Shown here: positions 3,036 to 59,462 of the stretch, one piece after another
Layout: every line of letters begins with the position of its first letter
Numbering within the stretch: position 1 is the stretch's first letter
Assembly: GCA_964551375.1 (NCBI GenBank)
Contig: CAZKBG010000001.1
Location: forward strand, 490,833-554,832
Source of the DNA: an uncultured archaeon
GTDB lineage: Archaea; Iainarchaeota; Iainarchaeia; Iainarchaeales; JAAZKV01
Direction: 5' to 3'
DNA length: 64,000 nucleotides
Program-made: the position numbers and the translations under genes
The notes under the pieces: model-generated
Seen by the model: the letters and a program-made list of their open reading frames with translations, nothing else
What the model was told of the DNA's origin: nothing
Databases searched by the model: none

Positions 3036-4274
3036 GTGGTTTTTGACATAAGTATTGGAACAAGCCAAAACTGGGATGCCAAAACAGCAACTTTAGAGGC
3101 TCTAAAAACAGCATTAAAAGGAACTGATCCCCCAAAATTTGCCCTCGTTTTTGCAACAATTCATTACTTAAAAAATAAAGGCTTACAACAGATACTTGAT
3201 ACAGTATATCAAAATGTTCCAAAAAGCACGCCTTTAATTGGAGGGACAGTTGCTGGATTTATGAATAAATCTGGTGTATTTACAAGAGGATTAACTGTAT
3301 TATTTGCATATTCTGACGAGATAGATGTAAAAGCTAATATTGGCTATAACACAAAAAGATCCCCTACAATAGCTGCAAAAGATTGTTCAAAAGGATTATT
3401 ATCAACTACTGGTAAAAAAAATAATTTTATATTTCTAGTATCAAGTGCTGTTGTTCCAAATGTCCCAATATTTAATAAAAAGGTTGTACAGTTAAGCGCA
3501 ATATCCCCTTTTGTAAAAATATTTGATACATTTTCTTCGCTTTTACAAATTGGACCAAGCAGAGACGAAACTGTGTTTAATGAATTCTCAAACGAGATGA
3601 AAGATAGTGTTGGAATTGGCGGAGGCGTTTGTGATAATTTAGAATTATTTAATAATTATGTATTTTACAATAACAAAGTTATAACAAATAGTGTTGTAGC
3701 TCTTGCGATTAGCAGTAATACTCAATACACTGTTAGAACCAGTAGCCGATTATTCCCAACTCAAAAGAAGCTCAATATAAGCAAATTATCAAAAAGTAGA
3801 TATGTTATAGAAAAAATAAATGGCAACCCCCCTCTTGACGAATATCTAAAAATAATGGGTTGGCCAAAAGACTTTATTGATGAACGAATGTACCGAAAAA
3901 TATTTTATTACCCAATAATAAATGAAGCTAATAAAAATAAAGAATCTCGAATGTTTGGTTTGGTTTATGGAAATCAATTTATTTGCCCAATGAAAATTTA
4001 TCCTGGAGAAAGCCAATTATACACATCATCAGGAAAAGACTTAATAGATTCAATAACTGATGTTACTGGCGATGAGAAATCTAAATTTACATTCATTGTT
4101 TCATGCGGCACTAGACTTGAAACACTTGGACACAAAGCATACTTAATAAACCAAAAGATATTAGAAAAACACGACGGCAACTTCCTTGTAATATATACTG
4201 CAGGAGAATATTCGAAAGACACTACTAATATAAAAACAAATTATCAGACAGATAATTCATTGTCCTTTTACTAA
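3036..4274 (+). CDS. FIST-domain-like putative sensory protein
   Basis: 412 aa. The N-terminal pattern (PKFALVFATIHY...STPLIGGTVAGFMNKSGVF...GLTVLF) matches the FIST_N layout as I recall it. Confidence 0.45.
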   Translation: MVFDISIGTSQNWDAKTATLEALKTALKGTDPPKFALVFATIHYLKNKGLQQILDTVYQNVPKSTPLIGGTVAGFMNKSGVFTRGLTVLFAYSDEIDVKANIGYNTKRSPTIAAKDCSKGLLSTTGKKNNFIFLVSSAVVPNVPIFNKKVVQLSAISPFVKIFDTFSSLLQIGPSRDETVFNEFSNEMKDSVGIGGGVCDNLELFNNYVFYNNKVITNSVVALAISSNTQYTVRTSSRLFPTQKKLNISKLSKSRYVIEKINGNPPLDEYLKIMGWPKDFIDERMYRKIFYYPIINEANKNKESRMFGLVYGNQFICPMKIYPGESQLYTSSGKDLIDSITDVTGDEKSKFTFIVSCGTRLETLGHKAYLINQKILEKHDGNFLVIYTAGEYSKDTTNIKTNYQTDNSLSFY

Positions 4275-5414
4275 TTCTTTTAATTCATCAACCGAGTGTG
4301 TTTTATAAAACTTAGTTGCTTCATCCAGAGGAATAATTCCTGCAATTGACAACATCAAAATCAATCCACTTTTCTTTTGATCTTTAAATGAATAAATCTT
4401 TTTCACCAATTTAAGTAATGCATCTGATTCTTCAAATTGTTTTGATAGTGGATTGGATTTAATCTTCTTGCCAATATTCTTACCCAAATAATCCCCCATT
4501 ATGATTGCAGGTAGTATGCCCTCAACGAAAGGTTTGAAATTATCATTCGCGGAGTCCCCAACAGAATAAACATTTCCAAATACCCTTTTTTTAGTAACAT
4601 AAAAAAAAGGGGCTTTTTTACTTTTATTTTTAACAAACTTGGCTGAAGAAACTTGCTTTTTCACAATAGGCAAATCTAAGAACTCATAAAAATATTTTTC
4701 AATTGGCTTCGTAGGGGCAATTCCACCAACTCCAACATTAGCAACCCCCTTCCCTTTCGGAAATATGTAAGCATACCCTTTTGGAGTAAATTCACCAAAA
4801 AATATTTGCTCTTTATTATCATCAATTAGTTCTACCCCATGCAACTCCCAAGAATAAACGTCTGCGTATTGACCTTTTTTTAATTTATAAACTCCAAGCA
4901 GAGTTAAAGTTTTTGATTCCACCCCATCAGCAGCAACTACATACTTAGGAAATATTTCAATATATTTTCCGTTATTATTTACTATTACAGAATTAATTTT
5001 TGATTTAGACTTATTTATCTTAACCAACTCTGTTGATGTCAAAACTTGTCCTCCGTTTGACATTACCTCGTTTGATAGCCACTTTTCAAATCCAGCTCTA
5101 TTAAGTGAAAAAGATTTCCAAAACCCATCTTTTAAATTAAGCGAAACACCTTCTGAATAAAATATCATCCCATCCATTTCCAAATCAAGATATTTCTTAG
5201 GAATTGAAAATGGTAATGCAGGTAATAAATATGCAGCAATTCCCTCAGCACATCTAATATCTTCACCAATTTCGCTTTTCTTATCAATACAAATTACTGA
5301 TTTATTATTTAACCGAGCTGCACGAGCAACACTCAATCCCGCAGGCCCTGCGCCAATTACCAAAACATCACAATTCATTAAATTCACTTTTTGTATACAT
5401 TTTAACTTATCCAA
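4257..5414 (-). CDS. Geranylgeranyl reductase family FAD-dependent oxidoreductase (paralog 1)
   Basis: Rossmann FAD motif CDVLVIGAGPAGLSVA near the N-terminus. Length and the ...GDSAN motif near the middle are typical of archaeal digeranylgeranylglycerophospholipid reductases. True start is probably the internal Met (MNCDVLVIG). Confidence 0.8.
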   Translation of the reverse strand: MDKLKCIQKVNLMNCDVLVIGAGPAGLSVARAARLNNKSVICIDKKSEIGEDIRCAEGIAAYLLPALPFSIPKKYLDLEMDGMIFYSEGVSLNLKDGFWKSFSLNRAGFEKWLSNEVMSNGGQVLTSTELVKINKSKSKINSVIVNNNGKYIEIFPKYVVAADGVESKTLTLLGVYKLKKGQYADVYSWELHGVELIDDNKEQIFFGEFTPKGYAYIFPKGKGVANVGVGGIAPTKPIEKYFYEFLDLPIVKKQVSSAKFVKNKSKKAPFFYVTKKRVFGNVYSVGDSANDNFKPFVEGILPAIIMGDYLGKNIGKKIKSNPLSKQFEESDALLKLVKKIYSFKDQKKSGLILMLSIAGIIPLDEATKFYKTHSVDELKELVKGQ

Positions 5415-6620
5415 CTATAAAAGCTTCAATCCCAACCCAACCGACTTTATTGGTCTTCTTAGCACTGCGGTGATTAAGTGTCTGATTTTATAATCATCAG
5501 AGTCAATCAATGAATCCAAGTGTTGTTTTTCGTTTAGGTAGTTTGCTGTTTCAACTAAGAAGTTAAAGTCTGCATTTGATAATTTGTCATAGGTTTTTCG
5601 GAGGTTTATGATGCTGGTTTCGGTTCCAAATTCCTTGTCAATTTTTTTAGCGTATGAGTTGAGCGCTTCTTTATTTGCGCCGATTGATTTTATTTCTTCA
5701 GCAAGCATTGCCCCTGAACGCATTGCGGGATTTACGCCGTAAGCAAATACAGGGCTCATGGTTCTTGCAGCATCTCCTGCGAAGGCAATATTTCCAATTA
5801 CGCGCACTGATGTTTTTGAAATAGTCCTTTCTCCGCCGTTTTGTTTTATTGTCTTTGAGCCAAGCATTATTCCATAAAGTTCCTGATTTTCTTTTATGAA
5901 TTCTTTATATAGTTCTTTTATTGGGCGCTTAATCAAGGCTTTATTCACCACAAGCATGCACATTCCGAATTTTTTTGATACTTTTCCAGCGAAGAAATAT
6001 CCCCCCGGAGCATAATTTGCGTCAAAAAATATCGAGGTGGTTTTGTCTTCCATTCTTAACCCGGATACAAGGGCTCCAAAGCCAAGAATTTCTGTTTTGT
6101 TTGATTCAGAAACCCCAAGCATTTCCATAAAATAGTTATCGCTACCTGTTGCTGCAACAACAATCTTTGGCTTAATTATGAACCGTTTTTCTTTGGACTC
6201 AACTATTACCGAACTAATTTTATTACCTGTTTTGTTAAGCTGGTGTATTCTTGTTGAAAAGAATAAATTAACTTTGTTTCTTTTCATTGCTTTCATTATG
6301 GAATAATCAAGCGACTTTTTTGATTTTCCCCTCAAGAAAAACAAGTCATGCACTTTTGAAACAAAAGTGAATTTGTCATTAGGAGAGTACCATATTGATT
6401 TGTTTGTTTTGGCAAGAACTGAAAGTTTTAATTCAGAAACAAGTTCTCCAATCCCTTTGTTTTCAGTAATATCAATTTTTTCAGTATGCATTGAGCCGGG
6501 AAACTTGCCCGCATCAATGCAGATTACTTTAAACCCGTTTTTTGCAAGCTTTGCCGCGCACACTCCGCCAGCGGGCCCAGCTCCGACAACTAATACATCA
6601 CAGCGAGTTTCTTTTGCCAT
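5415..6620 (-). CDS. Geranylgeranyl reductase family FAD-dependent oxidoreductase (paralog 2)
   Basis: CDVLVVGAGPAGGVCA FAD-binding motif and AFAGDAARTMSP motif. Directly abuts paralog 1 (stop/start adjacent). Confidence 0.8.
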   Translation of the reverse strand: MAKETRCDVLVVGAGPAGGVCAAKLAKNGFKVICIDAGKFPGSMHTEKIDITENKGIGELVSELKLSVLAKTNKSIWYSPNDKFTFVSKVHDLFFLRGKSKKSLDYSIMKAMKRNKVNLFFSTRIHQLNKTGNKISSVIVESKEKRFIIKPKIVVAATGSDNYFMEMLGVSESNKTEILGFGALVSGLRMEDKTTSIFFDANYAPGGYFFAGKVSKKFGMCMLVVNKALIKRPIKELYKEFIKENQELYGIMLGSKTIKQNGGERTISKTSVRVIGNIAFAGDAARTMSPVFAYGVNPAMRSGAMLAEEIKSIGANKEALNSYAKKIDKEFGTETSIINLRKTYDKLSNADFNFLVETANYLNEKQHLDSLIDSDDYKIRHLITAVLRRPIKSVGLGLKLL

Positions 6621-6646: not shown

Positions 6647-7033
6647 TTAAAACGAGGCGCCCTCTTCTTTTCTATCTATAATAATCTTTACTTTTCTTTT
6701 TGTATTTTCAACTTCAACATCAATCAAACCCATGTTTGCGAGCGAAGGAATTATTACAAGAAGCGAGAAAGTCTGGCTGATTGGAGCAAATATTATTGTG
6801 TAATCCCCAAGTTCAAAATTTAATCTGTCAATTTTATACACAAAAAAGTTTTCAATTATTGGAAAAATCTGATTTGTTGTTTCTTTAACCCTGTTCCAAA
6901 GATTAACATCCTTTACTTTAAGCCCTTCAGGAATTACTCCCCCCAACCCTTTTTTTGCAAGCATGCATGCGAGGACATCATCCATTTTGAGCAAATCGCC
7001 AAGAACTGCTAAAACTTCTTCCTTTTTACCCAT
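6647..7033 (-). CDS. Roadblock/LC7 (MglB-like) domain protein, putative
   Basis: 128-aa ORF. Alternating hydrophobic pattern (VLACMLAKKGLGGVIPEG ... YTIIFAPISQTFSLLVIIPSLANMGLIDVEVE) is consistent with the Roadblock fold. Weak call. Confidence 0.4.
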   Translation of the reverse strand: MGKKEEVLAVLGDLLKMDDVLACMLAKKGLGGVIPEGLKVKDVNLWNRVKETTNQIFPIIENFFVYKIDRLNFELGDYTIIFAPISQTFSLLVIIPSLANMGLIDVEVENTKRKVKIIIDRKEEGASF

Positions 7034-7048
7034 AATAATTAGTACTTA

Positions 7049-7690
7049 TTAGGCAGTTTTGTGGTAATAAAACTTTCTCTTGGTGCTTAAATTCTTGCTC
7101 ACAAGCATTACAACAGCATACCCAATATCCCAAGCAAGGAATGCGAAGAAGAACATTAATGGGAAGAATCCCAAAAGCGCAAATGCAAGAACCGCTATTT
7201 TCATCACAAATCTAAATTCAAAGAATAAATGAATATATTTCCCAAACGGCTTGTGTGAGTGATAAACATTGTTTGAATCAACCCAGTCGTTTCCAATTTC
7301 ATCAAAAATACCGGCAATCGAAATTATTATCAAAGGAATTGGAAGAATTAAAACAAACATGAACGCGCTTGGATCCATGAAGAAGTATGCTGTGTAAACG
7401 CAAAGAACCGCAACTATGAAAGCCAAGTTATCAATTTTTCCTTTAACAATTACTCCTATTATTATTGCAGTAAGAAGCATTGCCGAAGCAGGGTGAAGCA
7501 CCATAATGTATGCCCAAAAAATTGCAGTTATTGGAGAAAGAGCAAATGCAATTGCCTGCGGAAAAGTGTTTTCATCAAAAGCATCGTCAATGAATTTAAC
7601 AGCTGCCCCGATTAAGAAATAAGAAAGTATGAAAAAAAACGCGATAAAGAAAGGGTTCTGGGCAACAAGGGTTTCCACAAGGAAAGACAA
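7049..7690 (-). CDS. Integral membrane protein, function unknown
   Basis: 213 aa with at least 6 predicted hydrophobic helices. No recognisable motifs. Confidence 0.5.
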   Translation of the reverse strand: MSFLVETLVAQNPFFIAFFFILSYFLIGAAVKFIDDAFDENTFPQAIAFALSPITAIFWAYIMVLHPASAMLLTAIIIGVIVKGKIDNLAFIVAVLCVYTAYFFMDPSAFMFVLILPIPLIIISIAGIFDEIGNDWVDSNNVYHSHKPFGKYIHLFFEFRFVMKIAVLAFALLGFFPLMFFFAFLAWDIGYAVVMLVSKNLSTKRKFYYHKTA

Positions 7691-7712: not shown

Positions 7713-8486
7713 TTAAATCTCTGATTCCTTGATTGTTACTCCGCCACTCTCAAGCGCGTAAGGAATAGTTTGTTTTGAATGGTCAGTGTAACGCATTTTT
7801 CTAATTAACAAGCTTCTCAAATCAACAGAGCCTACTCCGACATAGTGGAGAACTAAAACACCGTCTGCGATGAATTCGCTCACACCATCAGCGCTTAAAG
7901 TTTTTTCATCTTCAGGAAGCTCGGTAGTAAGCATTGTTGTAACGCCATACTTTTTTACTTCCTTAAATAGTTTGTAAAGAACATTTTTGTTCCAAATCTC
8001 TTCAGATCTTGGAATCGGGTTGATTGTTTCAGCAATCTGAACCATTGAGAAAGTGTTTCCGTCAGCAATTCCAGATAAAAGCAAGTTATCAACAAGAGTT
8101 GTCAAAGAATCAACAACAATTCTTTTTGGCTTAAATTCATTAATCACGTTATTCAAAGTCTCTGGGAATTTTGATCCGCCTGTAATATCATAATACCAAA
8201 TTTTAATCAAATTCTTCTGTTCAAGCTCCGCAAGTCTCCAATTATAAGCCCCAGCCTGCTTGTACAATTCTTCCCTGTTCTGCTCCGTAGAAATGTAAAG
8301 GCCTTTTTCTCCAAAAATAGTAGCGCCGTTAACCAAGAACTGCATGCAAAAAGTGGATTTACCAGTTCCTGCTCCGCCCGAAATTAAAACAGTGTTTCCA
8401 TTTGGAACCCCGCCGTTCATGGCTTTATCAAGACCCTGAATACCAGTCTTTGTTCGAATAATCTCCTGCAAAGGCATTTTTTCCAA
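7713..8486 (-). CDS. KaiC/RadB-like RecA-superfamily ATPase
   Basis: Walker A GGAGTGKSTFCMQF preceded by the GIQGLDKAMNGG motif typical of KaiC-like archaeal ATPases. A Walker B-like hydrophobic stretch follows. Confidence 0.75.
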   Translation of the reverse strand: MEKMPLQEIIRTKTGIQGLDKAMNGGVPNGNTVLISGGAGTGKSTFCMQFLVNGATIFGEKGLYISTEQNREELYKQAGAYNWRLAELEQKNLIKIWYYDITGGSKFPETLNNVINEFKPKRIVVDSLTTLVDNLLLSGIADGNTFSMVQIAETINPIPRSEEIWNKNVLYKLFKEVKKYGVTTMLTTELPEDEKTLSADGVSEFIADGVLVLHYVGVGSVDLRSLLIRKMRYTDHSKQTIPYALESGGVTIKESEI

Positions 8487-8563
8487 CTCTGTACTTAGTA
8501 AAAAGAACTAGTATTTAAAGATGACTATGGACACAAAAAATTAATCCACTACTTAAATTTGGT

Positions 8564-10879
8564 TCAAATAAAAGCAGAAACTGTTTTTGCGCCGAGATAC
8601 TTTTTGGCAAGATCGGTAAATTCAGCCACTGCGCCAGCCAAATCATCATCGCTTGTCATGCTTTCAATGTAAATAACAGCGTTTTTTGTCCCTTCAGTGA
8701 ATTTTGTTTTGTCAGATTCTCTCCAGTTCCATCTTCTGCATAAAACATCCTTATCATCGCGGTAAATTACTTCCCCTTTATTTGGATGCTCTTTCATTTT
8801 TCCGCCAATCATAAAGAAATTTTCAGAGCCATCAGCAATTGTGAGCCTTACTTTTCCCTCAACTTTATCCAAGTCATCTCCACCCACAGGAACAACATAT
8901 TTTATTGAAATTAAATTATACAAATCAACAAGCGAGTTTATGTTTGGAAGAGGATTGTTGTTCAAAACTCTCCTCACAAGCGCATCAACTGAAGGCTTGT
9001 TCTTTGCAGGATCGCCGTTGAACGAAGAATATGATGCTCTCCAAGCTTTAAGCTGAGGAATATCAAGAGGATTAAATCCGCCAAATCTTGCCCTAAGCGC
9101 TGATTCTTCAGCCCTCAATAAAGAAGTAATTTCCTTATTTTCCTTGGAATTTGTTATTCCTTCAAGAACTACCACGCCAGCTTTATACCCTGGAAACTTT
9201 TCAACAACAGAAGAACTTATTTCAAATTTCAATTTTCCCAAATCAACTTCTTTTGATTTATTCTCATAAGATTTCTTGGATAACGGCTTGTCAATCGACT
9301 CGAGAAGCGCTTTAACTTTATCAAGACCGATAACTATTATGAAGTTTGATAATTTTGGCCCGAAGTTTTTATTTATTATTATTTTATAAAACGCAGTGAA
9401 GAATTCTTTTTGTTCAATTCCAGATTCTTTGCACGCTTCCCCAAAAAGCTTAATCAATTCATCTTCGCTCTTGCCAAGCATCTGTTTTGCAACAAATCTA
9501 ATTGCCGCTTTCTGCTTGTCAGTCAATGCGAGCTTTGCGTCATCGCTTGCATCATTTTGCAAAACAAACTTGAAATTGTCTTCAGCATAATTGTCAATCC
9601 AAAACTTTACCCTATCAACCATTGAATTAACATACTTCATGTCAAAAGAGTTGAAATAGGAGGCAATTTTTTTCCTGTCAAACTGATACACCTGCGAAAC
9701 AGTCACAAGATGCCTAAAATCAATCTGTGAAGGAATTTCTTTTGGCAATGAAACGGAACTTAATTCATAAATTCGGTTGTTTAATTCAAGGTCCTCTTTT
9801 TCGCACGGCTCTTTTCCAAAATAAATTCTTTCAACTTTCTGAAACTCCGAGTAAAGCCTTATTACATCCATTCCCTCAAAGCTCACTTCAAAATATTTTT
9901 CAGGCCTTTTTGAAACAAAAATGTACCTAATAATTTCCGGAGTGTAAACGCCAAGCATTTCTTTTAAGTCAATAGTGTTTCCCTTAGAAGAAGACATTTT
10001 TCCTCCCTGCCCTTTGATTGAAATAAATTCATACATTATGTGTTCAGGCGGAATTCTTCCAAAAATATCTTTTACAATTACTTCAGCAGTTGTATTGCTC
10101 CCTCCCTCGCTTGAGTGCTCTTTTCCAGAAGGCTCAAAATCAACTTTCTCAAACTCCCATCTCATAGGCCAGTCAACACGCCACTGAAGCTTTGCTATTC
10201 CTTTTTTTCTAAAATCAAAAGTATTAGTAAACCCGCATTGGCACATATAACTTAATGAATAATCCCCGTCATAGCCGATGATTGTAGTATCATCCTTGTT
10301 GCATTTCTCGCAAAATACTCTAACAGGATTCCATTCGCCTTCCAAATCCTCAGCTCTCCACTTATCAAGAACCTCTTTAATAGCATCTTTATTCAAAAGA
10401 GCTTTTTTCATCCCTTCAGAATAAGTGCACGCGCGGTATTTTTTTGCCTGATTCAAAAACTCAGGAAAAACACCCATTTGCGGAAGATAACTCTCAACAG
10501 TTTTTTCATTGTGCTCAGCATAACTCGCATGGCATCCAAAAGGATCAGGCACATCAACTATCGGCTGTCTCAAATATTTCTCAAGCATTTCTTTATTTGG
10601 AAAATTAGCGGGAACTTTTCTAAAAACATCATAGTCATCCCAAGAATAAATAAATCTGACTTTCTTTCCCTGCCTTGCAATCGCTTTTGCGACTAAATCA
10701 ACAGTAATAATTTCCCTAAAATTTCCAATGTGAACAACGCCTGAAGGAGTAATGCCCGCAGCAACAGTGATTAAGTCCTGCCCTTTTCTTTTTTCAATGA
10801 CATCCTTTGCTACCGCATCAGCCCAATGCACTTTTGAATCTGATTCATGCATTTTTTCATTAACAGCCATTTTACCCAC
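8564..10879 (-). CDS. lysK: Class I lysyl-tRNA synthetase with a ~218-aa C-terminal B3/4-like extension
   Basis: Class I aaRS signature motifs are VVHIGNFRE (HIGH variant) and KMSSSKGN (KMSKS variant), the combination characteristic of class I LysRS. At 771 aa it is about 240 aa longer than typical LysRS-I. The tail (PSVDALVRRVLNNNPLPNINSLVDLYNLISIKYVVPVGGDDLD) matches my recollection of the B3/4 domain core. Confidence 0.9.
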   Translation of the reverse strand: MGKMAVNEKMHESDSKVHWADAVAKDVIEKRKGQDLITVAAGITPSGVVHIGNFREIITVDLVAKAIARQGKKVRFIYSWDDYDVFRKVPANFPNKEMLEKYLRQPIVDVPDPFGCHASYAEHNEKTVESYLPQMGVFPEFLNQAKKYRACTYSEGMKKALLNKDAIKEVLDKWRAEDLEGEWNPVRVFCEKCNKDDTTIIGYDGDYSLSYMCQCGFTNTFDFRKKGIAKLQWRVDWPMRWEFEKVDFEPSGKEHSSEGGSNTTAEVIVKDIFGRIPPEHIMYEFISIKGQGGKMSSSKGNTIDLKEMLGVYTPEIIRYIFVSKRPEKYFEVSFEGMDVIRLYSEFQKVERIYFGKEPCEKEDLELNNRIYELSSVSLPKEIPSQIDFRHLVTVSQVYQFDRKKIASYFNSFDMKYVNSMVDRVKFWIDNYAEDNFKFVLQNDASDDAKLALTDKQKAAIRFVAKQMLGKSEDELIKLFGEACKESGIEQKEFFTAFYKIIINKNFGPKLSNFIIVIGLDKVKALLESIDKPLSKKSYENKSKEVDLGKLKFEISSSVVEKFPGYKAGVVVLEGITNSKENKEITSLLRAEESALRARFGGFNPLDIPQLKAWRASYSSFNGDPAKNKPSVDALVRRVLNNNPLPNINSLVDLYNLISIKYVVPVGGDDLDKVEGKVRLTIADGSENFFMIGGKMKEHPNKGEVIYRDDKDVLCRRWNWRESDKTKFTEGTKNAVIYIESMTSDDDLAGAVAEFTDLAKKYLGAKTVSAFI

Positions 10880-11020
10880 TTATGTGTAAAGTAATACTTC
10901 GGGCGTTTAGTTAAAAAAGCTTGGCTTAAATTACGAAAAGAGCAGTTTAGGATTAGAGCCATTTTAAGCTCGGGCATTACTATAAAAACCCCCAAAGCAA
11001 GAAATATTTAACGTGATATA

Positions 11021-11884
11021 ATGGGAAGGGCAGAGCTTTATAGAAAAGGGGGACCAGCACAGAAAATGCAAGGCGCAAGAAAATTAAGAGCCACAGGCAA
11101 CCCGATTTTTCGCCCAGCAGTCGGAATTAACAATAAAACAATGCAAATGGTGCTGAAAAGATGGACTGAAAGAAAAAGAGCCGAAGTGGTAAAAACAAAA
11201 TTGCCCCAAAAATTAAAAGAAATTGCAGGACAAACTCCAAAACCAAGCAGGACCCAAATAAATCAAGCAGTTCAAGCATGGCTTAAGGGAGAAGAACACA
11301 GAGTGATGTCCTACTCGCACCCCATAAAAGGAGCAAATGCGACAGGAAGCGAAGTTGCGATGAGATTTGCAGGCAAAGGACTTACTGAAAAAGCAAGAAG
11401 ACTTGCGGGGCTAAATCCAGAAGCAGCGCAGACTTTTTCAAGATTATTTAGAACCACTACAATTAATGTGCCTGAAATTAAGCTATACGTCGGACTTCCA
11501 ACAGCAATAATTATGCTGAAATTAATAAATAAGGCAGGGTTTAGAAGAGCAAATGCCGCAGTCAAAGTTGTTTCAAGAGAATCAAGCAGAATCATGAATA
11601 AAAATAAGCATAACAAAAAACTATCCTCATACCACAGCGACGCTTTCAATAACATCAGCAGCATGTTTTCAATGGCGCACACACTAAGAGAGCTTATGCT
11701 GCTTGACAAAAGAAACGGACTTGAAGCAGCAATGGATACAATCCATGCAAGGGAAGAAGCTCTTGCAAAGCTAAAAGCGCACCCAGAAGTACAAAATTAC
11801 AATTCTATCGCAAAAAGACTGGCTTCTGAAATTGAAGAAGGAAAAAGAGAAGCTGAAATATTCAAACAACAGAATGGACTTTAA
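11021..11884 (+). CDS. Hypothetical basic protein, paralog family A member 1
   Basis: 287 aa, Lys/Arg-rich. Shares a region with the next ORF (SHPIKGANATGSEVAMRFAGKGLTEKARRLAGL vs SHDIAIIRGGSKVTGTELAVRLVSRELIQTARQIGI). No known domain recognised. Confidence 0.5.
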   Translation: MGRAELYRKGGPAQKMQGARKLRATGNPIFRPAVGINNKTMQMVLKRWTERKRAEVVKTKLPQKLKEIAGQTPKPSRTQINQAVQAWLKGEEHRVMSYSHPIKGANATGSEVAMRFAGKGLTEKARRLAGLNPEAAQTFSRLFRTTTINVPEIKLYVGLPTAIIMLKLINKAGFRRANAAVKVVSRESSRIMNKNKHNKKLSSYHSDAFNNISSMFSMAHTLRELMLLDKRNGLEAAMDTIHAREEALAKLKAHPEVQNYNSIAKRLASEIEEGKREAEIFKQQNGL

Positions 11885-11930
11885 TTTTTCATGAGTACAG
11901 TTATATAAACAACTGAGGCTGAAATTATTT

Positions 11931-12929
11931 ATGCCACAATTAAAACCAAGATTAACTCCATTGCAGGCGGAAAAACTGCGAAAAGCAAGGGAGCGAAAGG
12001 GAAAAGGATTGCCTTTTATTTACCCTATGCAGGGAATGACTAAAGAGGCGCAGCTGGCAGTGATTCAAAGAATAAAACAAGACAAAGAAAGATCTTTAAT
12101 AGAAAAAATGAAACAAAGAAAAGTTGCAAAAATACGGGGAAAAATTATCCGCGAAATTGAGCCTGCTTTTGAAAAAATGACCCACAACGAAAGAACTACA
12201 ATAAGACCGAGCATAATGCACACGCTTTCAAGCGAACTTTCAACAATACGTTTTCCTGAAACAAGAAAAGAAGCAGAGCAAGTGGAAAGAGTTCTAAGAA
12301 TGCACCGAAAAGGAAAAGGGAAAACAATAAACTCACATGATATTGCAATAATAAGAGGAGGATCAAAAGTAACTGGAACCGAACTTGCAGTAAGGCTAGT
12401 TTCGCGAGAACTTATTCAAACAGCAAGACAAATAGGAATTGCGCATGAAAGCGCGCTTGTTGTTGAAAGGTTACTGCATAATAGAAATCAAAAAATACAC
12501 GGCACAAATGTCACTACCTATCCTCCAAATAGCTTACTTTTTATTAAGCTGATAAATAGAGAAGGCGAACAAAAAGCGGTGCATGTAATTGATGAAGTTG
12601 AGAAGCGCGCAGTGGAAATACAAAAAGACGCAAATTCACTTGGAAAAGAAACAAACTACAGCGATGTATTTGTTAATGTAAGCCAAAAAGTTCAGCCCCT
12701 GCAAATGGGTTTAGAGATGAACCTAATGAATAAAGAAAAATTTGTCAAGCAAGCGTGGAATGACTTAATGACAAGAACCCAAGCAGTGGCTTCAGCAAAA
12801 AAAACACATGGAGCAGCACTAGGAAAAGTTCTTGACAAGATTTCAAGTGAAAATATGTCATTTATGGGAGAAATACAGGAATACATGAAACGAAATAATA
12901 TTGGCCCGCATGTACTATTCAGCAAATAA
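11931..12929 (+). CDS. Hypothetical basic protein, paralog family A member 2
   Basis: 332-aa tandem paralog of 11021..11884 (shared G-x-x-x-TG-x-E-x-A-x-R motif region). Basic N-terminus. Confidence 0.5.
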   Translation: MPQLKPRLTPLQAEKLRKARERKGKGLPFIYPMQGMTKEAQLAVIQRIKQDKERSLIEKMKQRKVAKIRGKIIREIEPAFEKMTHNERTTIRPSIMHTLSSELSTIRFPETRKEAEQVERVLRMHRKGKGKTINSHDIAIIRGGSKVTGTELAVRLVSRELIQTARQIGIAHESALVVERLLHNRNQKIHGTNVTTYPPNSLLFIKLINREGEQKAVHVIDEVEKRAVEIQKDANSLGKETNYSDVFVNVSQKVQPLQMGLEMNLMNKEKFVKQAWNDLMTRTQAVASAKKTHGAALGKVLDKISSENMSFMGEIQEYMKRNNIGPHVLFSK

Positions 12930-13221
12930 ATGCTAAAAATAACCCAAAATGCTACTTAAAGACATCAAAAATTACCAGAATGTAATAAAAGATACACTCA
13001 AGCCCCCGAAGTATTTAATAATCACCAGGAAGGGTAATTAATGATGGATGTTAACTTTGTCTGGAGCTTATGATTCTGATTGTAGGCTCACCTCATTATT
13101 AAAGCTCCAGGCAGTTCACCAGTTTAACATCCGCTCACCTAATAATCCCCCAAGCCGAGAGGCTCGACATTATTTGAAAATTTTGTGGCAACCATAAACC
13201 CATCAAACAAACTTTTAGAAA

Positions 13222-13292
13222 GGGGTTGTGGTATAACGGCATTACGCAAGGTTCCAGACTTTGTTATTTGGGTTCAACTCCCAATAACCCCA
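13222..13292 (+). tRNA. tRNA-Trp (anticodon CCA)
   Basis: Hand-folded cloverleaf. Acceptor GGGGTTG pairs with TAACCCC. D arm is GTA/TAC with a GG-containing loop. Anticodon stem CAAGG/CTTTG encloses loop TTCCAGA (U33, CCA, A37). T arm is TTGGG-TTCAACT-CCCAA. Discriminator is A. No CCA encoded. Confidence 0.8.
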
Positions 13293-13328
13293 TAATAACT
13301 TTAAAAACAAGAACGGAGTTGATTATTT

Positions 13329-14459
13329 GTGGAAGAAAGAAAGCGTGATGAGATGAATAAAGAAGAAACAGTGATTATTGACCCTTGGGGAAAAGAGCTT
13401 GTCCAGGACTACACACGTTTAATCAAAGAGTTCGGGATGGAAGCGTTTGACAATAATATTTTCCCAGAGCCAAGCTTGCAGATGCGAAGAGGAGTAAATT
13501 TTGGAATGCAGGACGGAGAACAGATTGCAAAAGCCATAAAAGAAAAAAAACCATTCTACTGCCTCACAGGAATCATGCCATCAAGCGAAAAAATACACTT
13601 AGGAACTGAAACTGTTGTACAAAATGTTAGATACTTTCAGGACCACGGCGCAAAAACTTATATTTTAATTGCGGATGTTGAATCACAAGCCACCCGCGGA
13701 GTATCACTTGAAGAAGGAAAAAGAAGAGCAATGGAATTTCACATACCAGCCTACGTGGCTCTTGGACTTGATATTACAAAAACAAATTTTTACCTTCAAA
13801 GTGAAAACAAAAAAGTTTCAAACCTTGCAGCAATATGCTCTCAAAAAATAACTGAAAATGAATTTAGAGCAATTTACGGAAGCGTTCACCCGTCAAAAGT
13901 AATGAGCGCTTTCACCCAAATGGGAGATATACTTTACCCGCAGCTTGAAGAAAGAATGCCAGGAGTAATTCCTGTCGGAATTGACCAAGCCCCCCACATT
14001 AGAATGGTGAGGGATATTTCAAGAAGATTAAAACAAGATTATGGATTCTTCCTTCCAAGCGCAGTATACAATAAATACACAAGCGCTCTTGACGGCTCGT
14101 TTAAAATGAGCAAAAGCTCGGGAGAATTCTCAAAATTTGATATTCCTGAAAAAGATATGAAAATGGTTGAGAAAAAAATACAAAAGGCGCTCACTGGCGG
14201 AAGGGCAACAAAAGAAGAACAGAGGGCAAAGGGCGGAGAAATAGATAAATGCGTTGTTTATGAATATTGCAAAAACCATTTCATAAAAGACGATAAAATT
14301 CTCTCGCAAATGTATGAAGAATGCGTGAGCGGCAAAAACCTTTGCGGAGAGTGCAAGGCAAAATTTGGAATACCGAATGCGGTAAAGTTTTACGAAGATT
14401 TTAATAAAAACTTTGAGAAAGCAAAAAAGTCAATAGGAAAAATAAAATTTGTGAACTGA
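13329..14459 (+). CDS. trpS: Tryptophanyl-tRNA synthetase (archaeal/eukaryotic type)
   Basis: HIGH-region CLTGIMPSSEKIHLGT and KMSKS motif. The C-terminal block (ALTGGRATKEEQRAKGGEIDKCVVYEYCKNHF ... CGECK) matches archaeal TrpRS, not TyrRS. Confidence 0.9.
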   Translation: MEERKRDEMNKEETVIIDPWGKELVQDYTRLIKEFGMEAFDNNIFPEPSLQMRRGVNFGMQDGEQIAKAIKEKKPFYCLTGIMPSSEKIHLGTETVVQNVRYFQDHGAKTYILIADVESQATRGVSLEEGKRRAMEFHIPAYVALGLDITKTNFYLQSENKKVSNLAAICSQKITENEFRAIYGSVHPSKVMSAFTQMGDILYPQLEERMPGVIPVGIDQAPHIRMVRDISRRLKQDYGFFLPSAVYNKYTSALDGSFKMSKSSGEFSKFDIPEKDMKMVEKKIQKALTGGRATKEEQRAKGGEIDKCVVYEYCKNHFIKDDKILSQMYEECVSGKNLCGECKAKFGIPNAVKFYEDFNKNFEKAKKSIGKIKFVN

Positions 14460-14462
14460 TAT

Positions 14463-15158
14463 ATGCCTAAATTACATTCAAACAGGGCAATGCAACAGGA
14501 AAGAATACGCGCAAGCCAGAAACAGCTTCAGCTTTTGAGAAGAAAAGAAAAAATAAAAGGCCCAAAGTTTGAGGCAAACGGAAAACATTTCCAGCAGCAA
14601 AACAGATTAAGAACGCTTCTTGAGAGAGTGCGCCCAAGAGCAATGAAGCCCCAGCAGGAATTTGGAACAGGAGTGGACTTTGTATTCGCTGGGAAAAAGA
14701 TTGATTTTAAGTTTGGATTTGGAACACTCGGACACAACACAATAAGCGTGAGAATGAACGGAAATGAACTCATAAACAAATCAGACTGGACAATGGTATG
14801 CAACGAACGCGGAGACATAATCATATTTGGGACAGACAGGATACGCGACTTTGTAAAAATGAACAGAAGCAAAATGAAGCAAAATATGTTTCTAAATAAA
14901 GGCACTTATACAATGCACAGAATCCCATTAAGCGAAATGCTTGGGGAAACAAGATACACTGGGAACATACGCTCGGGAAAAGGAATCCTTAAAGCATTAA
15001 AAAAAATGAACCGAATTGACAACCCGAATATGCCTGCCAAAAGCCCTTTTTTAGGACTAGGACAAAGCAAAGCTGAACGGATAAGGATTGCGCAATCTTT
15101 CACACGAATGGGCGCGCCGCCGCAAAGGCCGAGATTTGACCGCAGAATAGGCAGATGA
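14463..15158 (+). CDS. Hypothetical basic protein, paralog family B member 1
   Basis: 231 aa. The core (GVDFVFAGKKIDFKFGFGTLGHNTISVRMNGNELINKSDWTMV) is clearly homologous to the next ORF. Arg-rich C-terminus. Starts 4 nt after the trpS stop. Confidence 0.5.
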   Translation: MPKLHSNRAMQQERIRASQKQLQLLRRKEKIKGPKFEANGKHFQQQNRLRTLLERVRPRAMKPQQEFGTGVDFVFAGKKIDFKFGFGTLGHNTISVRMNGNELINKSDWTMVCNERGDIIIFGTDRIRDFVKMNRSKMKQNMFLNKGTYTMHRIPLSEMLGETRYTGNIRSGKGILKALKKMNRIDNPNMPAKSPFLGLGQSKAERIRIAQSFTRMGAPPQRPRFDRRIGR

Positions 15159-15196
15159 AAATAATTATAAACAAGAAGCGTGTTAAAAGGTAAATA

Positions 15197-15841
15197 ATGT
15201 TTGATGCCCCAAACAATGCCTTACTGTTGGAACTTTTTTTAGAGCACACTCGCGCCAAAAATTGCAGGAAAATTTCTTTTAGAAAAAAAATCCAGCAGAA
15301 AATAAACCCAACCTGCATGGAGCAGAACAAAATGCGTTCAGTGCTTTTGGAAATGATTCCAAAAGAAATGGAAATAATAGAAGACGCGCATTTTGGAGTG
15401 GATTATTTATACCGCGGAATAAAAATTGACCAAAAGTTTTCATTCGGCGCGCTTGGAAAAAATACCATCAAAATCAGGGTAAAAAACAGAAGGCTTGTGA
15501 ATAACTCTGACTGGACAATGATAATAAACAAAAACTGGGAGCTTGAATTCTTTGAAACCGGAAAGCTTGAAGAATTTGTGCGAAAGAACTGGAGCACTGT
15601 TCAGAAAAGACTTGTTGAAAAGAAAAAATATTACGCAGAGTATTCAATAAAGCTTGATGAACTTTACCAGCTTGAAAAAATCGAGCCTCTGAAGGCAAAT
15701 CTTGAAAAAGAAATGCTGATTAACGGGCTTAGCCAAATTGAGTTTATTGAAAATGAAAAAGAGCTCCCCCAAACACAGCTCGTGTTTGATGACTCAATTC
15801 TAAAAAGAAGCGTTCTAACTCTCGCACACAAAAGCCCTTAA
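15197..15841 (+). CDS. Hypothetical protein, paralog family B member 2
   Basis: 214 aa. GVDYLYRGIKIDQKFSFGALGKNTIKIRVKNRRLVNNSDWTMI aligns with the previous ORF. Confidence 0.5.
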   Translation: MFDAPNNALLLELFLEHTRAKNCRKISFRKKIQQKINPTCMEQNKMRSVLLEMIPKEMEIIEDAHFGVDYLYRGIKIDQKFSFGALGKNTIKIRVKNRRLVNNSDWTMIINKNWELEFFETGKLEEFVRKNWSTVQKRLVEKKKYYAEYSIKLDELYQLEKIEPLKANLEKEMLINGLSQIEFIENEKELPQTQLVFDDSILKRSVLTLAHKSP

Positions 15842-15863
15842 ATATTACTCTACTTTATTAATT

Positions 15864-16376
15864 ATGCAAAAACTAAAACTAACCCTTCACACCGCAAAAG
15901 AAGAGGATGCCGACTTTGTTTATGAAATGATGCAAGATGAGGATTACAGGAAGCATTACCTTGAGAGACTTATTTTTAAAAACGTGGATGACGCAAAGAG
16001 CGACATTAATCAATCTATTAAAGACGCTAAAAGAGGAACAAGATTTTACTTTATAGTAAGACGGGGAAAAGAAAATATTGGAATACTTGATGTTTATAAA
16101 ATCAGCAAATCTGACAAAAAAGCATCAATAGGATATGGAATAAAAAAAGAATGTTGGGGAAGCGGGATAGGAAGCGAAGTGTGCAAACTGGGGCTTGAAT
16201 TTATTGAAAAAAAGCTGAAACTGCACTCGGTTGAAGCGACTGCTGATCCATTGAATAAAGCAAGCCACAGAGTTCTTGAAAAAAACGGGTTTAAACTGCT
16301 CGCAACTGTAAAAGATTACTACTATGATAGAGGAAAATTCATTGACAGGGCGATTTATTGGAAAGTATTTGAATAA
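15864..16376 (+). CDS. GNAT family N-acetyltransferase (RimL/RimJ-like)
   Basis: 170 aa with the acetyl-CoA binding motif region (CWGSGIGSEV ... ATADPLNKASHRVLEKNGFK) typical of GNAT. Confidence 0.8.
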   Translation: MQKLKLTLHTAKEEDADFVYEMMQDEDYRKHYLERLIFKNVDDAKSDINQSIKDAKRGTRFYFIVRRGKENIGILDVYKISKSDKKASIGYGIKKECWGSGIGSEVCKLGLEFIEKKLKLHSVEATADPLNKASHRVLEKNGFKLLATVKDYYYDRGKFIDRAIYWKVFE

Positions 16377-16525
16377 ATGAGTCAGAACATTTATTCATTG
16401 GATTTGAAGAAGAGAAAGTTTCTGCAACAAAAGCGTTTTTAGAGCTAATAATATCCCAAATAAGACTTATCTGGCAAGCCAGAACAAATGTATTAAATAC
16501 AGCTATAATCAATACTAAGTGCAAT

Positions 16526-16876
16526 ATGCCAAAGAAACTATCTGTCATGCCAGATTTACTTGGAATTACAGGACTTGAGAAAGAGATATACCTTTATGTA
16601 ATTGACAACTGGCCTACTACCCCCATAGAAATTGCATTGCAGAGAAATGAAGACATATCAGACAGGGACAAGAAAAGACGCGCAAGCACAAAATACGCTT
16701 ATTATGTCAAAAAACTTGTTGGAAAAAAACTCCTTCTTTCAAAAAAAGCAGGAAACAGCATAATTGTATGGCCCGTTTTGGCTGAAAAATACAGAACAAT
16801 TCATAATATTCTGAAAAATCATGAGCCTGAGCACATCGCGGCAATAAACACTCACACAGGTGAGAAACTTGCTTAA
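16526..16876 (+). CDS. Hypothetical small protein, possible DNA-binding partner of the V4R protein
   Basis: 116-aa ORF. Overlaps the next ORF by 17 nt in a different frame. Confidence 0.35.
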   Translation: MPKKLSVMPDLLGITGLEKEIYLYVIDNWPTTPIEIALQRNEDISDRDKKRRASTKYAYYVKKLVGKKLLLSKKAGNSIIVWPVLAEKYRTIHNILKNHEPEHIAAINTHTGEKLA

Positions 16877-17432
16877 CACTTTTTATGATAAATTCCTATT
16901 CACTAACACCCTAAAGTACCAGCACAATAACTTCTATCTTCTTAACATGCCATTTTTGATGATGCCGGTGGATGTAATCGCCGCGCTTTTGGAAATTTCA
17001 GACACTGAATTTCAAAAAAAGATTTATACTGCAATAAAAATGCACACAAAAGAGAACCTTCTTCAGCAATTCAGCCTTACTCTCGGAGTTGATAAAAAAA
17101 AGGAGCTTGATTTGCTCAAAGACTACTTTACCGCATCAGGATGGGGAAATTTGCAGACAATTGACCTCGAATTTGAAACAAAAAGAGCAATAATTCTTGT
17201 GGAGAACTCGCCTTTTGCAGCTGCGCTGAAAGGAAAAAGCGCTAGTCCGGTAGATACCTTCCTAAGAGGAGTGCTTGCAGGACTATTTTCAAAAATATTC
17301 AACGAAGACATTGACTGCGTGGAAGTTGAGTGCCTTGCGCAGAACAGCGAAAGGTGCAAATTCATAATAAAACCAAAAACAGAATTTGACTTTACAAATG
17401 CAATAGTGCAACAGCAATTAAGCGCGGATTAA
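16860..17432 (+). CDS. V4R (4-vinyl reductase-like) domain protein
   Basis: C-terminal motif GVLAGLFSKIFNEDIDCVEVECLAQNSERCKFIIKPK (CxE...C..G...C.F) is typical of V4R small-molecule-binding domains. Confidence 0.65.
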   Translation: MRNLLNTFYDKFLFTNTLKYQHNNFYLLNMPFLMMPVDVIAALLEISDTEFQKKIYTAIKMHTKENLLQQFSLTLGVDKKKELDLLKDYFTASGWGNLQTIDLEFETKRAIILVENSPFAAALKGKSASPVDTFLRGVLAGLFSKIFNEDIDCVEVECLAQNSERCKFIIKPKTEFDFTNAIVQQQLSAD

Positions 17433-17434
17433 AA

Positions 17435-18718
17435 TCAAGCCTTTGAAATCTTGATTTCAGTTTTTCCGCCCATGTACTGCTGAAGAGCTTTTGGAATTCT
17501 AATAGTGCCATCCTTAGTCTGATGATTTTCAATAATTGCCCTAAGCATCCTTGGAACAGCAACTTCAGTCGCGTTTAAAGTATGGACAAATTCTTTATCA
17601 TTACCTTTTCTAACCTTAATATTCAATCTTGTTGCCTGGTAAGAAGAGCAATTACTCAATGAATGTGTTTCAAAATATTTGCCCTCTCTTGGAGACCAGC
17701 ACTCAATATCATATTTTTTAGAAGCAACAGTCCCAATATCCCCAGTGCAAATCTTCACAACCCTATACGGCAGTTCCATTGCTTTTACAAATTCTTCAGC
17801 ATTTTTTACAAGAACCTCATGCCACTTCGCGCTGTCCTTTGAATCACAGAAAACAATCTGCTCTACCTTGTCAAACTGATGAAGCCTAAATAGCCCTCTT
17901 TCTTCAAGCCCATGCTTTCCGCCTTCCTTTCTAAAATTCATTGAATAGCCCGTGTAAAGCAAAGGCAGATCCTTTTCTTCAAAAGTTTCATCCATGTGCA
18001 TTGCAGTCAAAGGATGCTCGGCAGTCGCAATCAGGTAATGATCTTCGCCGTCAATTTTATACATCACACTTTCAAAATCAGCAAGGTCAGTCACACCCAT
18101 ATACGCTTTCTTTGTCATCATATAAGGAGGAATTACAAGCTTAAACCCCTGATTTGACAATGAATTTATGGCAAAATTAACTATTGCGATATTTAATAGA
18201 GCCAAATCGCCTTTTAACGCATAAAATCCTTCGCCAGCAATCTTAACCGCTCTGTCAAAATCAGCAACGCCAAGCTTAACTGCAAGCTGACCATGATGAA
18301 CCACAGCAAAATCTTTTTTCTTAACTTCACCAACGGTTCTTACTACAACATTTTCATCTCCGCTCTTTCCATAAGGCACGTCATCAAGAAGCATGTTTGG
18401 AATGCTCATTAAAAGAAGCTTATTCTCTTCCTCAAGCTGCTTAACTCTCTCTTCCTTTGATTTAATCTTGGCAGGAAGCAATTTTGCTTTTTCTAAAAGC
18501 TTTTTAGTATCAAGCCCTTTGCCCTTGGCAAGCTTAATTTCTTCAGTAACAGCGTTTCTTTTTGCCCTTAGTTCATCAACTTCGGCTTTAAGAGTGCGCC
18601 ACTCTTTATCCTGATTAACCCACGCGTCAAATGATGATAGGATTGCGTCATTATGTCTCTTTGACAAGTTTTCCCTAACTGCTTTAGGATTTTCTCTAAT
18701 AATTTTTGGGTCAATCAA
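17435..18718 (-). CDS. serS: Seryl-tRNA synthetase
   Basis: 427 aa. N-terminal coiled-coil tRNA-binding arm (MIDPKIIRENPKAVRENLSKR...) and class II catalytic core motifs (FRKEGGKHG...RLHQFDKVEQ; TGDIGTVASKKYDIECW). Confidence 0.9.
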   Translation of the reverse strand: MIDPKIIRENPKAVRENLSKRHNDAILSSFDAWVNQDKEWRTLKAEVDELRAKRNAVTEEIKLAKGKGLDTKKLLEKAKLLPAKIKSKEERVKQLEEENKLLLMSIPNMLLDDVPYGKSGDENVVVRTVGEVKKKDFAVVHHGQLAVKLGVADFDRAVKIAGEGFYALKGDLALLNIAIVNFAINSLSNQGFKLVIPPYMMTKKAYMGVTDLADFESVMYKIDGEDHYLIATAEHPLTAMHMDETFEEKDLPLLYTGYSMNFRKEGGKHGLEERGLFRLHQFDKVEQIVFCDSKDSAKWHEVLVKNAEEFVKAMELPYRVVKICTGDIGTVASKKYDIECWSPREGKYFETHSLSNCSSYQATRLNIKVRKGNDKEFVHTLNATEVAVPRMLRAIIENHQTKDGTIRIPKALQQYMGGKTEIKISKA

Positions 18719-59413: not shown

Positions 59414-59462
59414 ATATAACAACAATTAATTAAATAATTAATGCGAGACGAAGGAATGCCTT

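Follow-up and report, generated by a model that had tools for sequence, protein, structure and literature searches.

Canavanyl-tRNA deacylases (CtdA) are free-standing proteins of about 230 amino acids (aa), described mainly from bacteria, that correct an error of arginyl-tRNA synthetase (ArgRS), namely canavanyl-tRNA-Arg (PMC10018355). The pocket of the S. enterica enzyme is formed by S80, L84, N105, V115, G116, E118, C166, N170, W171, R172, Q173 and I189; the substitutions N105A, G116H/W, Q173G and C166G inactivate it, I189 is described as a determinant of pocket size, enzymes in which the residue size is altered at G116, Q173 or I189 are reportedly defective, and in the C. perfringens CtdA, a functional enzyme, position 173 is Glu (PMC12449066). 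Archaeal homologues have been placed in a divergent clade, CtdA-2, which lacks the Cys (PMC10018355, PMC12449066). Here we analyze a stretch of 64,000 nucleotides (nt) from an uncultured DPANN archaeon of the Iainarchaeota (assembly GCA_964551375.1, contig CAZKBG010000001.1, positions 490,833 to 554,832), referred to as the window, in which a domain of the CtdA family is not free-standing but covalently attached to the C-terminus of a class I lysyl-tRNA synthetase (LysRS-I).

Other editing systems offer further points of comparison. The B3/B4 editing domain of PheT, the phenylalanyl-tRNA synthetase (PheRS) beta subunit, shares with the window domain the Pfam family PF03483, the overall fold and the catalytic-site Asn, and as a cis post-transfer editor built into a synthetase it has the layout proposed below for the LysRS tail. 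It is, however, internal to a multidomain subunit, whereas the window domain is a terminal appendage on a linker, and PheRS editing-site residues such as H265 and G318 give way to Gly666 and Glu721 in the window protein; only the Asn is common to the CtdA and PheRS editing sites (PMC12449066). The closest functional resemblance is to the N-terminal editing domain of archaeal threonyl-tRNA synthetase (ThrRS) and its separate form ThrRS-ed, a deacylase module that occurs in related archaea both fused via a linker and as a gene of its own, a pattern matched by the fused, adjacent and free forms of the CtdA-like domain. The ThrRS domain nevertheless has an unrelated DTD-like fold and a different client, Ser-tRNA-Thr, and its case has been established by experiment. 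The only post-transfer editors described as acting on mischarged tRNA-Lys, among other tRNAs, are ProXp-ST1 and ProXp-ST2 of the INS superfamily (PMC7373986), which, unlike the window domain, are of unrelated fold, free-standing and Ser/Thr-specific, and not directed at long basic side chains. As to LysRS itself, the quality control described concerns the class II enzyme (LysRS-II) only and consists of pre-transfer cyclisation of homocysteine, homoserine and ornithine, while reviews of editing report no LysRS editing domain (PMC7373986). This pre-transfer reaction uses the synthetic active site and no extra domain, whereas the editing proposed for the tail would be post-transfer and carried out by a separate domain.

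A class I LysRS with a CtdA-family tail

The complete fusion gene occupies positions 8564..10879 on the minus strand of the window and is a single uninterrupted open reading frame (ORF) of 771 aa, read from a GTG at 10879 and closed by a stop codon at 8564-8566; the 100% identical public protein P0121 starts at the ATG at 10870, three codons downstream, and has 768 aa. Residues 17-524 (9308..10831, minus strand), comprising the catalytic Rossmann fold and the anticodon-binding and C-terminal helical domains, constitute an intact LysRS-I by hidden Markov model (HMM) score, signature motifs and fold. This region scores 533.5 bits against a cutoff of 147.55 with the equivalog HMM TIGR00467, residues 18-376 match the Pfam family tRNA-synt_1f (PF01921; E = 5e-124, 414 bits vs 27), and the modelled body aligns with the LysRS-I of P. 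horikoshii (1IRX) at a template modelling score (TM, target-normalised, Foldseek) of 0.86 and 35% identity. The class I 'HIGH' and 'KMSKS' signatures are found by motif search as HIGN (residues 50-53, 10721..10732, minus strand) and KMSSS (residues 294-298, 9986..10000, minus strand), both of which had been claimed in the original prediction, made from the letters of the window alone. The same prediction regarded the body as complete by about residue 550; complete it is, but its end lies slightly earlier, near residue 528. The translation continues with a Lys/Ser/Glu-rich interdomain linker, IDKPLSKKSYENKSKEVDLGK (residues 529-549, 9233..9295, minus strand), whose roughly 20 residues are proposed to be flexible and for which the full-length model has a predicted local distance difference test score (pLDDT) of about 66 around residues 531-540. 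By comparison with free-standing homologues, the added domain begins at L550 (LKFEIS...) and extends to residue 771 (8567..9232, minus strand). The limits first given for the tail, residues 554-771 (8567-9220), were thus right in substance and missed the first four residues of the domain.

The isolated tail matches Pfam B3_4 (PF03483) with E = 1.2e-26 (93.8 bits vs a gathering cutoff of 29.3), and among PDB sequences phmmer retrieves the CtdA structures of P. canavaninivorans (9F7E, E = 3.3e-33) and S. enterica (9MKL, E = 2.4e-28), which have the same fold and 31-40% identity (PMC10018355, PMC12449066). The AlphaFold2 model of the tail (pLDDT 92.2, predicted TM score (pTM) 0.88) aligns in Foldseek with CtdA at TM 0.85-0.86, a root mean square deviation of about 3 Å and 31-33% identity, and with the B3/4 domain of PheRS-beta at TM 0.5-0.6 and 9-13% identity; the PheT equivalog model TIGR00472 gives the window protein 18.8-21.9 bits, far under its cutoff of 402.65. 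Since CtdA is the best match by both sequence and fold, the tail is a CtdA-family domain, predicted to be an aminoacyl-tRNA deacylase, and not a PheT-type one. The original prediction had recognised in two peptides, both of which occur in the translation, the core of a B3/4 domain, described as the PheT editing module that is also found as stand-alone proteins. The profile search of residues 554-771 is significant and bears out the B3/4 assignment, which holds for the free-standing, trans-editing branch of the fold, as had been suspected, whereas the kinship with the PheT-type editing domain does not hold.

The predicted aminoacyl-binding pocket, mapped onto S. enterica CtdA, stretches from S630 through Y737 (8669..8992, minus strand). 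S630, L634, Y654, N655, V665, G666 and D668 correspond to S80, L84, Y104, N105, V115, G116 and E118, and C714, N718, W719, R720, E721 and Y737 to C166, N170, W171, R172, Q173 and I189. The equivalents of C166, N170, W171, R172 and Q173 lie in the motif CRRWNWRE (residues 714-721, 8717..8740, minus strand), which is the most conserved stretch of the family. All residues required for CtdA activity, N105, G116, C166 and Q173 (or Glu), are thus matched, by N655, G666, C714 and E721, the last having the residue found in the C. perfringens enzyme. E118 and I189 are not kept: D668 is a conservative replacement, and Y737, much larger than Ile, is the sole non-conservative change of the pocket. Equivalents of S80, L84, Y104, N105, G116, C166, N170 and R172 are invariant or nearly so in 63 fused and 120 free homologues. 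On this residue conservation the pocket is predicted to be catalytically competent, and by analogy with CtdA its chemistry is presumed to be the same, i.e. hydrolysis of the aminoacyl ester on tRNA. Because the Cys that separates CtdA-1 from CtdA-2 is kept (C714), the tail is classed by its sequence as CtdA-1-like, unlike the archaeal CtdA-2 proteins. At the I189 position fused proteins have Tyr and 103 of the 120 free ones have Val, and Tyr737 marks a DPANN synthetase-linked subclade. A role for Tyr737 as a LysRS-specific switch was considered and rejected, since 5/6 of the free genes adjacent to ArgRS also have Tyr, and some of the LysRS-II and ArgRS fusions have Val. Positions K628, Y661 and S740 differ between ArgRS-linked and LysRS-linked domains; the comparison involves only 7 related ArgRS-linked sequences and is not relied on.

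The covalent attachment of this module to LysRS-I, as originally proposed, is supported by the continuity of the ORF, by a clean junction in the DNA between body and tail, with no break of frame or assembly, and by the presence of the same single-ORF architecture in 12 independent species-level genomes and in dozens of protein clusters defined at 90% identity. The AlphaFold model of the full-length protein is confident (pLDDT 91.8, pTM 0.72), its body matching 1IRX and its tail CtdA. Compared with the four closest orthologues, identity is 69-73% in the tail and 65-80% in the body; with more distant orthologues the values are 46-54% and 58-59%, respectively, whereas the linker has 17-54% identity, compared with overall ranges of 58-80% (body) and 46-73% (tail). 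The tail is therefore about as conserved as the synthetase body while the linker is not, which argues for a catalytic function retained in the tail.

Recurrence of the domain on LysRS and ArgRS

A survey of the 120 LysRS-I clusters (90% identity) most similar to the window protein reveals that 62 carry the domain: 23 have a close C-terminal version of the window type, 9 a divergent C-terminal one, and 30 an N-terminal one (residues ~6-215). Scanning species-representative genomes with the motif [LI]CRRWNWR led to 450 confirmed relatives, the genomes nearest to the window being those of Candidatus Iainarchaeum and metagenome-assembled genomes (MAGs) of uncultured archaea. Architectures were tabulated for 82 loci, the best 80 genome loci of these relatives together with L005 and L006. 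The domain is fused to the C-terminus of LysRS-I in 12 loci and to its N-terminus in 4, to the C-terminus of LysRS-II in 2 (L009 and L056, with 557 and 522 bits for TIGR00499 against a cutoff of 427.6), and to the N-terminus of ArgRS in 1 (L079); as a free gene it adjoins ArgRS in 6 loci and LysRS-I in 3, and the remaining 54 loci contain a free gene without such a neighbour. The related genomes thus hold LysRS-I with and without the tail as well as free-standing domain genes, the three situations that the original prediction had proposed to survey. A search seeded with a LysRS-II fusion yielded further LysRS-II fusions, among them P0308 from a Simkaniaceae bacterium and P0343, which bears an extra HD domain. 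Taken over all searches, LysRS-II proteins have the domain at the C-terminus in L009, L056, P0254, P0260, P0274 and P0343, and at the N-terminus in P0308, P0381 and P0432.

Several variants were observed alongside these architectures. Triple fusions of LysRS-I, a CtdA-like domain and an AlaX-like part, consisting of the C-terminal part of PF01411 and tRNA_SAD, occur in P0128, P0135 and P0138 (L003:4001-7066, L004:1254-4319); P0128 has the AlaX-like part at its N-terminus, P0135 and P0138 have it at the C-terminus, and P0138 was found on two independent contigs. LysRS-II proteins of Diapherotrites type (P0246, P0248, P0251, P0252, P0253, P0288) carry AlaX-like domains (fused in P0246, P0248, P0251 and P0252) and/or DUF2000 (PF09391), without a CtdA-like domain. 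Such AlaX-like additions are consistent with LysRS gathering deacylase modules in these lineages. A Chloroflexi MAG (L064:2924-5228) contains a LysRS-I gene followed directly by a CtdA-like ORF in another frame, about 53 nt apart or overlapping; either a compact operon or a fusion broken by a frameshift could account for this arrangement. In JGI or UniRef, the names 'lysyl-tRNA synthetase class 2' and 'Lysine-tRNA ligase' are given to free CtdA-like proteins and to one fragment of 119 aa (P0072, P0113, P0241, P0026), annotation that was probably carried over from fusion proteins.

A census of 1.84 billion representatives at 50% identity (E <= 1e-3) identified 3,296 relatives of the tail, the best 150 of which were used for counting fusion partners. 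These comprise 116 short, free-standing proteins and 34 long ones; among the latter the domain is N-terminal to ArgRS in 20, whereas the partner is LysRS-II in 4, LysRS-I in 2, and TyrRS, a GNAT acetyltransferase and an amidase in one each, and 5 (310-433 aa) have an unassigned extension only or no second recognisable domain. The recognisable partners are thus overwhelmingly synthetases of the two basic amino acids. Examples of ArgRS with an N-terminal CtdA-like domain are L079:3887-6727, P0363, P0368, P0369, P0373 and P0387, and P0363 contains two tandem copies of the domain. The rare partners are those of P0457, P0451 and P0453: TyrRS (TIGR00234 above cutoff), GNAT acetyltransferase and amidase. 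A canavanine-specific GNAT has reportedly been described, and the GNAT fusion of the CtdA-like domain may relate to canavanine detoxification. Concerning free genes, in 4 of the 63 unfused loci no more than 90 nt separate the CtdA-like gene from a same-strand ArgRS gene, an operon-like position, with a naive P of ~1e-10 for loci that are phylogenetically clustered; adjacency to LysRS-I (3/63) or to AspRS (2-3/63) is not significant alone (P ~0.06-0.14). Free relatives beside ArgRS genes are P0072, P0077, L031, L053 and L080. A search confined to the 64-kb window found no ArgRS and no second CtdA-like copy.

The history of the fusions was approached through distance-based neighbour-joining trees with simple corrections, whose deep nodes are weakly supported and which include no CtdA-2 sequences. 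In the tree of LysRS-I bodies, window-type fusions fall together with 17 unfused enzymes in one clade of 100% bootstrap, and the N-terminal and divergent C-terminal fusions are interleaved elsewhere. L001/P0126 is an 80%-identical LysRS-I that lacks the tail and whose neighbouring genes are ordered as in the window (TrpRS, LysRS, KaiC-like ATPase); comparison of L001:6001-8000 with window positions 7713-10879 reveals a 357-nt intergenic gap where the tail would be, and no tail remnants were found in the unfused syntenic relatives L001 and L002. Since the L001 enzyme nests among fused ones with 99% bootstrap, its position in the tree implies loss of the tail in situ, and the module would be accessory rather than essential. 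In the tree of the domains, that of L009 (LysRS-II) nests inside the clade of LysRS-I C-terminal tails (bootstrap 94), those of P0274 and P0343 (LysRS-II) join the divergent tails of LysRS-I (bootstrap 100), and those of the other LysRS-II and ArgRS fusions are nearest to free proteins. These placements point to many independent fusions and to a single domain lineage that can sit on either class of LysRS. Convergent substitutions in the LysRS-I body of fused enzymes were also considered and rejected, as none was found on comparison of fused with unfused enzymes.

Proposed function of the tail and alternative explanations

Our favoured explanation, held with moderate confidence, is that the tail, as a tethered module, carries out post-transfer editing and so clears mischarged tRNA-Lys. 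The LysRS body would bind tRNA-Lys via its anticodon-binding domain and then aminoacylate it; in the event of a non-cognate charge the 3' end of the tRNA would be captured by the tethered deacylase, either before release or on immediate re-binding at high local concentration. The pocket containing N655, G666, C714 and N718-W719-R720-E721 would then position the ester bond for hydrolysis, and correct Lys-tRNA-Lys would be spared by the CtdA-type pocket. Hydrolytic activity, tRNA-Lys as the client, and a route either in cis or in trans while tethered are all elements that we infer. The two classes of LysRS share no fold, and what is common to both is lysine, ATP and tRNA-Lys; the presence of the same hydrolase family on both classes, at either end, is therefore best explained by a function on the product of LysRS. 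ArgRS, the commonest partner, is also the source of the error that CtdA corrects, and this parallel supports LysRS as the source of error in the LysRS fusions.

The client tRNA and the rejected amino acid of the window domain may differ from those of CtdA. As the pocket is nearly identical to that of ArgRS-linked relatives, with no obvious lysine-specific retuning, it suggests an Arg- or canavanine-like substrate, and our leading guess is that the tail rejects an amino acid whose side chain is of this kind, long and polar or basic. A need for such editing is offered by the statement, in a passage of PMC5370406 that cites Jakubowski 1999, that Arg-, Thr- and Met-tRNA-Lys are not deacylated by LysRS.

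Several observations weigh against tRNA-Lys editing by the tail. In their pocket, LysRS-fused domains hardly differ from ArgRS-linked and free relatives, so that no specificity switch towards a lysine-related substrate is apparent from the residues compared; Tyr737, which at first seemed specific to fusions, recurs in five of the six ArgRS-adjacent free genes. CtdA strongly prefers canavanyl over arginyl esters (PMC12449066). The domain stands at either terminus, which argues against one fixed geometry for shuttling of the CCA end, and a comparison of fused with unfused enzymes finds no position in the LysRS-I body that co-varies with the presence of the domain. Finally, the tail is dispensable and accessory, given the 80%-identical syntenic LysRS without it and the 17 unfused enzymes of the same clade.

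The likeness of the pocket to that of ArgRS-linked relatives keeps alive a different explanation, the main and a serious rival although less likely, namely that the tail is an ordinary CtdA-type trans editor of mischarged tRNA-Arg, acting on canavanyl- or related esters, that tRNA-Lys is not its client, and that fusion to LysRS serves only to co-express it, to set its stoichiometry or to bring it close to the translation machinery or to a synthetase complex. Its pocket is essentially that of CtdA, its closest free relatives (the five listed above) adjoin ArgRS genes, ArgRS is by far the commonest partner (20 of the 34 long proteins among the best 150), close relatives do without the tail, and the occurrence of the domain at either terminus suggests a loose tether and a trans-like module. 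Any abundant protein could, however, serve as a passive carrier, whereas the partners found are LysRS-I, LysRS-II and ArgRS, with one TyrRS, one GNAT and one amidase as rare exceptions among the best 150 relatives; both unrelated classes of LysRS are fused at both termini, and one domain lineage stays on a LysRS across a change of class. Moreover, the partner in the ArgRS fusions is the source of the error, and the same logic points to LysRS in the fusions analyzed here.

A tail without hydrolytic function, serving as an extra domain for binding or retention of tRNA that would aid the affinity for tRNA-Lys or its channelling in an archaeon of reduced genome, appears very doubtful. Domains of the B3/4 fold do bind the acceptor end of tRNA, and appended non-catalytic tRNA-binding domains are, as a matter of general knowledge, common in synthetases. 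All the residues on which CtdA activity depends are nevertheless kept, invariant across independently fused lineages, which is not expected of an RNA-binding scaffold; the tail is conserved to the same extent as the catalytic body, and its fold is intact and confidently predicted. An artefactual origin, in which faulty assembly or a frameshift error would have joined two neighbouring genes, is effectively refuted: free CtdA-like genes do adjoin LysRS-I genes (L043, L048, L064), with different reading frames in L064, but the window ORF is continuous across a clean junction, the identical protein is present in the independent public record P0121, the same single ORF recurs in the 12 species-level genomes and in many metagenomes, and the full-length model is confident.

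Genomic context and implications

The fusion gene belongs to a synthetase cluster (8564-18718) that also contains TrpRS (13329-14459, TIGR00233 above cutoff) and SerRS (17435-18718), with a tRNA-Trp gene (13222-13292) ending 36 nt ahead of the TrpRS ORF. This trio recurs in L001 as SerRS, a class Ib synthetase and LysRS, and L003 shows SerRS and the LysRS fusion. The window also encodes MCM, topoisomerase VI and a class III signal peptide, and is archaeal. At 57881-61661 a DsbD_2 membrane protein with a fused HMA (heavy-metal-associated) domain is encoded directly upstream of a P-type ATPase that likewise contains HMA, likely a metal-handling pair. Two tandem genes for FAD-dependent, geranylgeranyl-reductase-like proteins of 385 and 401 aa (4257-6620) adjoin a gene for a FIST-domain protein (3036-4274). 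ORFs of 560, 287, 332, 371, 128 and 213 aa (32985-34667, 11021-12929, 20362-21477, 6647-7690) have no Pfam match at the thresholds used; that of 213 aa looks by its sequence like a membrane protein.

To our knowledge, neither class of LysRS has a dedicated post-transfer editing domain, and both, like ArgRS, serve in textbooks as examples of synthetases that lack one; we know of no synthetase other than LysRS that exists in two unrelated structural classes. ArgRS is absent from a review's list of proofreading synthetases. Neither the CtdA papers nor the reviews of synthetase editing consulted mention a LysRS-CtdA fusion, in a coverage of the literature that is incomplete, such that an earlier mention is possible; the CtdA papers speak neither of LysRS nor of fusions of any kind, ArgRS fusions with CtdA-like domains included, and a literature search on CtdA together with LysRS yielded nothing relevant. 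Public records label the fusion proteins simply 'lysine--tRNA ligase', and the fusion explains misleading automated labels such as 'lysyl-tRNA synthetase class 2' on free CtdA-like proteins. The LysRS fusions suggest a built-in proofreading step that has not been described. The natural fusions name the likely client enzyme, which makes the hypothesis directly testable with recombinant protein. They would also bear on a question raised by the authors of the CtdA work, that of CtdA-like genes in organisms that never meet canavanine.

The repeated recruitment of one hydrolase domain by LysRS-I, LysRS-II and ArgRS would, if true, place a new editing system on the map of translation fidelity. A wider generalisation, which we advance tentatively as a serious possibility short of being probable, is that a CtdA-type module has been acquired many times independently as the post-transfer editor of ArgRS and of both classes of LysRS across much of DPANN and the candidate phyla radiation (CPR). 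The CtdA family would then be a general proofreader for the charging of basic amino acids rather than a canavanine specialist, and mischarging of tRNA-Lys would be a widespread, so far unrecognised problem, the candidates being Arg, ornithine or some other basic non-protein amino acid that occurs naturally.

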